Source of the DNA: a virus
Virus record (IMG/VR): IMGVR_UViG_3300042475_004151
Reading direction: 5' to 3' (one strand)
DNA length: 64,000 nt
Below the pieces are notes generated by a model. It was not told where the DNA came from and made no database searches. It was given only the letters and a program-made list of their open reading frames with translations. Of the stretch, positions 52,487 to 52,642 are shown one piece after another; position 1 is the stretch's first letter; every line of letters begins with the position of its first letter. A program made the translations under genes and the position numbers.

Positions 52487-52642
52487 CTGTCAAGGGAGGA
52501 TTCGAACCATCCACGCTGTGATTCAATGTTGGACAAAATAGCCGGCTTGTGGTCAACCCATATCCAAACATCTATCTCAAACTCAGCGCCCACGAGACGA
52601 GTGGGTGTGTCTACCTGCTGATCTAGCTTTCACCACTTGACA
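52487..52642 (-). ncRNA. 156-nt tRNA-like RNA with giant variable arm (nominal anticodon GTC)
   Basis: TGTCAAG/CTTGACA-G acceptor, CCCAC-TCGTCTC-GTGGG arm, GG-TTCGAAT-CC T-loop, CGCTG...CAGCG arm of about 75 nt. Confidence 0.75.

Follow-up and report, generated by a model that had tools for sequence, protein, structure and literature searches.

The window, i.e. the whole stretch of 64,000 nucleotides that was analysed (IMG/VR virus record IMGVR_UViG_3300042475_004151), is AT-rich (29% GC) and encodes T4-type replication genes together with GroEL/GroES and Hsp20. Its minus strand carries a GC-rich island of RNA genes, in which the element described here lies between a 76-amino-acid open reading frame (ORF) and about 270 nt of other structured RNA, followed by a tRNA-Leu(UAA), an ORF for an HNH endonuclease, and a tmRNA. 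The features of the island are, in this order:

52647-52877, minus strand: 76-amino-acid ORF, with one hydrophobic segment
52642-52487, minus strand: the element, as delimited by covariance model R1 and by the sequence
52217-52486, minus strand: GC-rich spacer of ~270 nt, separating the element from the tRNA-Leu
52216-52131, minus strand: tRNA-Leu(UAA), found by ARAGORN/Rfam
51618-52085, minus strand: HNH endonuclease ORF, inside the RNA island
51604-51208, minus strand: tmRNA, found by ARAGORN/Rfam

The tRNA-Leu and the tmRNA are the only calls made by ARAGORN and Rfam in the island, and a permissive Rfam scan (E up to 10) of positions 52300-52800 gave no tRNA-like match. No match was obtained for the 76-amino-acid ORF in Pfam or PHROG. 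The element starts 4 nt past the stop codon of this ORF, and a homologous ORF ends directly upstream of the element in many phage loci, an arrangement that suggests co-transcription of the two. The HNH endonuclease ORF aligns with just the first two thirds of its best PHROG profile, and its position within the island is reminiscent of the segB homing endonuclease in the T4 tRNA cluster. The tmRNA of the window encodes a 23-residue tag with a normal degron at its end; a tmRNA is found within a few kb of the element in most related phage loci, in other lineages with short tags of 7-8 residues. The spacer (52217-52486) contains conserved stretches that are common to the phage loci L003, L037, L060 and L064. 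Furthermore, a motif of 12-13 nt (CTGAACACAGTG) recurs 2-10 nt 3' of the element in many otherwise unlike loci (L002, L011, L020, L037, L044, L049, L064, L069, L105 and L113) and is missing after the window copy; a further conserved RNA may begin there, or the motif may be a signal for processing.

The element comprises 156 nt from position 1 to the discriminator G73 and has the shape of an aspartate tRNA; C74 (position 52486) lies just 3' of it, and CCA is not encoded. Its parts are:

52636..52642, minus strand: 5' strand of the acceptor stem, pairing with 52488-52494 (7 bp)
52606..52635, minus strand: U8-G9 and the D arm, with a 3-bp class-II (Leu-like) D stem
52617-52627, minus strand: hairpin insert of the D loop, 11 nt, sitting before G18-G19
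52589..52605, minus strand: anticodon arm, with a 5-bp stem and a 7-nt loop at 52594-52600
52514..52588, minus strand: giant variable arm of ~74 nt (helices 4-9), from RNAalifold and pair counts
52550..52560, minus strand: apical hairpin of the arm, carrying UUGACCAC, the most conserved arm motif of the family
52540..52547, minus strand: perfect self-complementary segment of 8 nt, in the 3' bulge of the arm
52495..52513, minus strand: T arm, with a 5-bp stem whose 5' strand has one bulged U, and a standard T loop of 7 nt
52487..52494, minus strand: 3' strand of the acceptor stem and discriminator G73, from the sequence

The tRNA core positions U8, A14 and G18-G19 are retained, as is the T loop, and the anticodon loop reads GUC at positions 34-36, with C33, U37 and C38. 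The arm starts with a basal 4-bp stem, continues with a 3-bp helix and, past an internal loop, a 10-bp helix, and ends in the apical module. An earlier note, made from the letters of this stretch, had described a 7-bp acceptor stem with discriminator G, a T arm with a bulge, an anticodon arm with C33 and a pyrimidine at position 37, a D-loop hairpin and a large variable arm (~75 nt, here given as 74 nt) at 52487-52642 on the minus strand, and all of these are present in the sequence; the T-stem bulge is also found in 16 of the 113 distinct phage copies described below. Folding of the single sequence yields the same topology with an energy no better than that of shuffles (z = -0.72), and support for the fold was therefore taken from homologues.

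An exact 21-mer from the 3' end of the element was found in 4 viral contigs, and a 17-mer from the arm, around UUGACCAC, in 76; an anticodon-arm pattern and a gapped pattern retrieved many further viral contigs. In total, 113 distinct full-length phage copies were extracted, all of them from contigs of uncultured T4-like phages. RNAalifold predicted the structure given in the earlier note from 55 phage sequences (MAFFT-based), with compensatory changes at 27 of 41 pairs. Among 94 phage and bacterial sequences, 95.8% of the cells are paired and 34/41 pairs are changed on both sides, values for an alignment that was fitted to the model and is thus somewhat biased toward the structure, and with which the MAFFT-based result agrees. 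The covariation score of these 94 sequences is 0.534 (0.106 or less when the partners are slid), and none of 500 shuffles attained the observed values. In the model-based alignment, every one of the 51 phage members has the motif UUGACCAC, as do about 25 of the 43 bacterial members. Two internal contacts were considered for the arm and rejected, i.e. pairing of the GAC of the arm motif with the element's own anticodon (the motif lies partly in a stem, and bacterial variants include a change of G to A) and pairing of the anticodon loop with the internal loop of the arm (not conserved among homologues).

The covariance model built from the homologues (R1) matches the window copy with 157.5 bits over model positions 1-157 and ends exactly at 52487-52642. 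Family members score above 115 bits, class II tRNAs 20-36 bits; the best ordinary tRNAs are phage tRNA-Leu(UAA) genes, which reach 31-36 bits over their full length. The tRNA model of Rfam (RF00005) does not match the element at the gathering score or at E up to 10, no other Rfam 15 family matches it either, and ARAGORN leaves it uncalled in the window as well as in 60 phage and 15 bacterial loci; short bacterial relatives are likewise uncalled by ARAGORN and Rfam. A blastn search for relatives in GenBank phages returned tRNA-Leu and chance matches only. We are highly confident of the identity and fold of the element as described here. The proposal that it is a selected structured RNA rather than a decayed tRNA is borne out by more than 150 distinct homologues with compensatory changes, by the lack of an Rfam match, and by the normal tRNA-Asp genes that stand alongside; there is no sign of an intron in the arm.

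The element belongs to an uncatalogued family of tRNA-derived RNAs of Chitinophagales (Bacteroidota), of which it is a copy carried by a phage. It matches R1 over the full length and has U1-A72, G73, anticodon GUC and pyrimidine 37, together with an arm no shorter than 35 nt; across the family, the arm ranges from approximately 35 to more than 100 nt. Scanning one genome per species with the gapped pattern gave matches in about 18 Chitinophaga genomes and some metagenome-assembled genomes (MAGs). Strong R1 matches were obtained in 14 genomes among the 151 sampled from the phylum; among 151 sampled from the order to which Chitinophaga belongs, R1 detected chromosomal copies in 61. Tandem arrays of up to four copies occur; a genome labelled C. 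pinensis contains two copies, and there the RNA is equipped with a Bacteroidota-type promoter-like sequence of its own, as well as with a ~50-nt leader and an intrinsic terminator. A divergent gene for an Lrp/AsnC-family regulator adjoins the RNA gene in nine of ten bacterial loci tested, with varying genes downstream, and a search of 1.48 Mb of phage loci gave no Lrp/AsnC homologue. A phage tRNA-Asp is 91-95% identical to chromosomal tRNA-Asp genes of three carrier bacterial genomes, which fits Chitinophagales as hosts.

In a tree of 144 columns, which is too weakly supported for counting transfers, 47 of 51 phage copies fall into one clade (support 0.65-0.75) and a few are placed among the bacterial copies. 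A member of 227 nt and 36% GC on a short MAG contig (L228; genome G281, contig 247) falls into the phage clade, and the contig probably comes from a phage and was placed in the bin of a bacterial genome. One MAG in the Chitinophaga-order sample that carries the element is labelled Bifidobacteriaceae (L182/G002, CAZXFT010000005.1); either this label or the bin looks wrong.

At the acceptor end, pair 1-72 is U-A in 94/94 sequences, pair 2-71 is G-C in 91/94 and pair 3-70 is U-A in 87/94, whereas pairs 4-7 covary freely (15-49 double changes among the 94 sequences). With G73 in 120 of 121 distinct copies overall (74/75 phage, 46/46 bacterial), this is the pattern to be expected where an enzyme reads the acceptor end. 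C74 is present in all 75 distinct phage copies and CCA is encoded in three of them; the same 3' syntax (N73, C74, non-CA) is found in the genuine tRNAs of these phage arrays. G10 is replaced by A10 in 38/94 members, and 98 of 110 parsed phage copies hold a D-loop insert of at least 8 nt, in 62 distinct forms.

The anticodon is GUC in 110/110 parsed phage copies and in 44/46 bacterial copies, and in the phage copies it is fixed while positions 32, 33 and 38 vary. C38 is present in 95/110 phage and 46/46 bacterial copies, and a pyrimidine occupies position 37 in 108/110 and 46/46, respectively (154/156 in total). Position 33 is C in 98 (~89%), U in 10 and A in 2 of the 110 phage copies, whereas 37 of the 46 bacterial copies have U33 in a normal 7-nt loop. 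The description of the loop as 'decoding-incompetent' in the earlier note was therefore too strong, since C33 is mainly a trait of the phage copies. In one bacterial genome (L209, G137), two short copies of 109-110 nt stand in tandem, with anticodon UUC and a 35-nt arm that lacks UUGACCAC; they would be a glutamate-type sister form of the family.

The strong determinants for aspartyl-tRNA synthetase (AspRS) are G73, G34, U35, C36 and C38 (PMC9976931), and the window copy has all five. The pair G1-C72 is strictly conserved in bacterial tRNA-Asp and helps to position the acceptor end in the AspRS of E. coli (PMC9976931); of this acceptor set the family retains G2-C71, and G1-C72 is replaced by U1-A72. 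In the arrays of these phages, U1-A72 occurs otherwise in tRNA-Gln, and tRNA-Asp and tRNA-Asn have G1-C72. Canonical tRNA-Asp(GUC) genes (G1-C72, U33, A37) were found besides the element in five phage loci with large arrays, and canonical tRNA-Asp genes in all five element-carrying bacterial genomes tested.

A specialised but working tRNA-Asp isoacceptor, charged by AspRS, delivered by EF-Tu and reading GAC/GAU, with an arm that modulates stability, modification or regulation only, would account for the complete cloverleaf with all tertiary-pair nucleotides and a 7-nt loop, the invariant GUC, the U33 of most bacterial members, the tandem multi-copy arrays like those of tRNA genes, and a 3' syntax identical to that of real tRNAs. 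Against a decoding role stand the near-universal pyrimidine 37, C33 or A33 in 100 of the 110 phage copies, U1-A72 in the place of G1-C72, the two bacterial copies with UUC instead of GUC, and the canonical tRNA-Asp that is also present in the large phage arrays and genomes tested; in addition, phages with just one to three tRNAs and a tmRNA still hold the element. Such an isoacceptor is possible and, in our view, rather doubtful.

Charging by seryl-tRNA synthetase (SerRS), which would make the element an RNA of the allo-tRNA kind with a role as missense tRNA or regulatory RNA, is suggested by the long arm and the near-invariant G73, both of which are SerRS identity marks (PMC7609411, PMC5389517), and by GUC, which is among the predominant anticodons of allo-tRNAs (PMC5389517). 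The body of the element is Leu-like and not Ser-like, however, with tRNA-Leu as the top ordinary matches of R1, and its acceptor and T stems have the 7/5 geometry instead of 8/4 or 9/3. Since SerRS does not read the anticodon, it would leave the invariant GUC and C38 unexplained, and serine at Asp codons would be harmful. We consider charging with serine very unlikely.

The pair U1-A72 promotes amidation by GatCAB, which rejects tRNA-Asp partly via an extra base in the D loop (PMC1635274); of these features, the family has an invariant U1-A72, and the D loop is much enlarged in the phage copies. The tRNA-Asn and tRNA-Gln of the indirect pathway, which combines a non-discriminating synthetase with GatCAB (PMC1635274), resemble the element in U1-A72, in G73 and in an anticodon read by AspRS, and differ from it in that the element has GUC and not GUU and an enlarged D loop; moreover, asnS was detected in 147 of the 151 genomes from the order. 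Gene content lends no support to a role in asparagine formation, since gatB (10/10 genomes tested) and asnS are present in the same way with and without the RNA and do not discriminate.

The reading that we favour, with somewhat less than even confidence, is that of an RNA that is matured like a tRNA, is recognised by AspRS and uses its giant arm as effector, and that does not serve as a routine decoder. The element would be cut from the transcript of the phage RNA island by the ordinary tRNA maturation enzymes (RNase P, 3' processing), and CCA would be added on the conserved G73-C74 end; maturation of this kind is favoured by the tRNA-like 3' syntax, by U8, A14, G18-G19 and the T loop, and by the setting in tRNA arrays. 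The RNA would then be recognised by AspRS via G73, G34, U35, C36 and C38, with charging probable, and would act beside the normal tRNA-Asp without replacing it. The pyrimidine at position 37 (together with C33 in phages) and U1-A72 would keep it from routine decoding, and the giant arm would be the effector, as a handle for a partner and, in the phage copies, also as a means of pairing with copies of itself. More speculatively, the charged RNA might be a substrate of GatCAB, owing to U1-A72. The Lrp/AsnC neighbour of the bacterial genes would point to amino-acid-linked regulation in the cells, and was counted for this mechanism. Counted against it, as far as can be read from sequence, are the U33 and the normal 7-nt loop of most bacterial members, with which decoding would be possible; U1-A72 could weaken charging by AspRS, A10 stands in the place of G10 in 38/94 members, and the enlarged D loop might block GatCAB.

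The phage copies share a further property. In 103 of the 113 distinct copies, a perfect palindrome of at least 8 nt lies 1-2 nt past the conserved arm motif (6.5% in shuffles), and in 54/113 the arm palindrome is at least 10 nt long (1.5% in shuffles). The arm palindromes comprise 19 different sequences with nine different central tetranucleotides, so that adjacent bases covary in Watson-Crick fashion. Of the 98 D-loop inserts, 60 contain a perfect palindrome of at least 8 nt (3.7% in shuffles), in 26 distinct forms. The phage palindromes are segments of 8-12 nt at two exposed sites, and GC-rich palindromes are 11 times denser in the element than in its flanks (8.2 vs 0.73 per kb); the arm palindrome of the window copy occurs once in the 64 kb. 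The bacterial copies are mostly without such palindromes. We regard the covarying palindromes in the phage copies as a new observation.

As isolated segments, for which these energies were computed, the palindromes would give no useful hairpins (0 to -2 kcal/mol) and would give self-duplexes of -13 to -19 kcal/mol; dimers from loop to loop, in which the pairs cross the acceptor stem, cannot be represented by RNAcofold. In three near-palindromes (L072, L088 and L121), the only deviations are ones that still pair as G-U on the RNA-sense strand, which favours a function of the transcript over one of duplex DNA. Palindromes that do not form useful hairpins suggest self-association of RNA with RNA, and their simplest reading suggests pairing between identical RNA molecules. 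The phage copies might accordingly be self-assembling RNAs, whose D-loop and arm palindromes, preserved as palindromes while their sequences drift, pair head-to-head and tail-to-tail into dimers, chains or rings, and whose assembly could concentrate or trap an enzyme that reads tRNA-Asp during infection; we put this forward as a tentative proposal that may well prove wrong.

Traps of this kind could also be built from an uncharged mimic, i.e. an RNA that soaks up or misleads a reader of tRNA-Asp such as an anticodon nuclease, AspRS, a modification enzyme or a ribosomal stringent-response factor, for which the phage palindromes would provide multivalency; an invariant anticodon triplet in an otherwise off-standard loop would suit a mimic, and phages carry the RNA without the bacterial regulator. 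However, a chromosomal and regulated bacterial family suits a cellular job better than an anti-defence decoy. The acceptor top, G73 and C74 are conserved so strictly as to suggest use of the 3' end, and a loop unlike that of real tRNA-Asp at positions 33 and 37 would make a poor decoy. An uncharged mimic therefore appears unlikely to us, and AspRS recognition with the arm as effector is retained as the preferred reading.

Few architectures in biology are as constrained as that of tRNA, and textbook tRNAs have no variable arms of more than about 20 nt. The element has the cloverleaf stems and loops of a canonical tRNA and lacks the U33 and the purine 37 of one. Class II tRNAs (tRNA-Leu, tRNA-Ser and tRNA-Tyr; RF00005) share with it the 7/5 cloverleaf, U8, A14, the standard T loop, a Leu-like D arm that includes G18-G19, and an extra arm at the variable position of the core; their arms, however, have roughly 13-21 nt (74 nt in the element), and the Asp anticodon, pyrimidine 37, U1-A72 and the D-loop hairpin set the element apart. 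Allo-tRNAs are alike in their long arm, in G73 and in an anticodon that does not match the class II amino acids (PMC5389517; PMC7609411). GUC is among their commonest anticodons (PMC5389517), some are found in phages, and they have been proposed to be missense tRNAs or regulatory RNAs (PMC5389517, PMC7609411). In contrast to the element, with its 7/5 geometry and giant conserved arm, they have an 8/4 or 9/3 geometry, a Sec-like D arm and arms of ordinary length, and they derive from Clostridia, Proteobacteria and Acidobacteria, whereas the present family derives from Chitinophagales and their phages.

The tRNA-like domain of tmRNA and the Y-RNA-like YrlA resemble the element in a tRNA-like acceptor/T module and in the use of tRNA maturation enzymes, but have no anticodon arm or a different closing helix where the element has a full cloverleaf; the Rfam models for tmRNA and YrlA do not match it. 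The species 1 and 2 RNAs of T4 (rnaC and rnaD) are stable RNAs without assigned function, and are alike in that they are non-tRNA RNAs in a T4-type tRNA cluster with a homing endonuclease; rnaC, with its T arm and paired ends, has no anticodon arm of the element's kind. Homology to them was rejected, with an R1 score of 15.6 bits (E = 0.15) on rnaC and no match on rnaD. A paper on viral structured RNAs mentions one motif that overlaps a tRNA-Asp call at 1 of 27 sites (PMC10690425). Searches of the open-access literature gave no account of a tRNA-like gene whose arm is of this kind, either for Bacteroidota or for their phages, and nearest in print are class II tRNAs, allo-tRNAs (PMC5389517) and the species 1 RNA of T4.

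A conserved, regulated family with multiple copies, in which a structured arm of 35 to over 100 nt is combined with an invariant Asp anticodon and an acceptor top of the Gln/Asn type, would represent either a new kind of adaptor with a specialised task or, off the ribosome, a new use of the tRNA fold. Its retention by many phages with almost no other tRNA suggests importance for the infection of a major group of freshwater and soil bacteria, and the covarying palindromes provide a concrete claim of RNA self-association that can be tested at the bench. The family is reported neither by ARAGORN nor by the Rfam models used, and may thus be missing from annotations that rely on them.

Finally, the same phages contain a second class of unannotated RNAs with a tRNA frame, in which a near-constant acceptor stem, a Leu-like D arm and a T arm are combined with a highly variable cargo of 30-70 nt in the place of the anticodon and variable region. 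They too are uncalled by ARAGORN, and several are present per phage locus. The earlier note had offered, among other roles for the element, that of a scaffold displaying an RNA domain. In its strict form, the tRNA frame would be a handle for processing and stability only (RNase P, 3' trimming, CCA) and the arm the whole function; these constant-frame cargo RNAs, one of them in the window, and rnaC of T4 with its T arm and paired ends, provide precedents. A handle would not need the invariant anticodon, the conserved sequence of the anticodon stem, C38 or the fixed acceptor top, however, and about 15 of 43 bacterial members without the conserved arm module keep the tRNA part. The display of a domain is thus partly upheld by the related RNAs, and the tRNA part of the element is more than a handle, because its anticodon and acceptor top are invariant; that the frame is a handle and nothing else seems to us hardly probable. 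The RNAs of the second class, assigned by their tRNA frame, are located at:

18801-18876, minus strand: window
6766-6844: phage locus L003
4534-4678, 4977-5099 and 11993-12116: phage locus L079
four sites: phage locus L093
14131-14228 and 14449-14555: phage locus L086
5808-5915: phage locus L110
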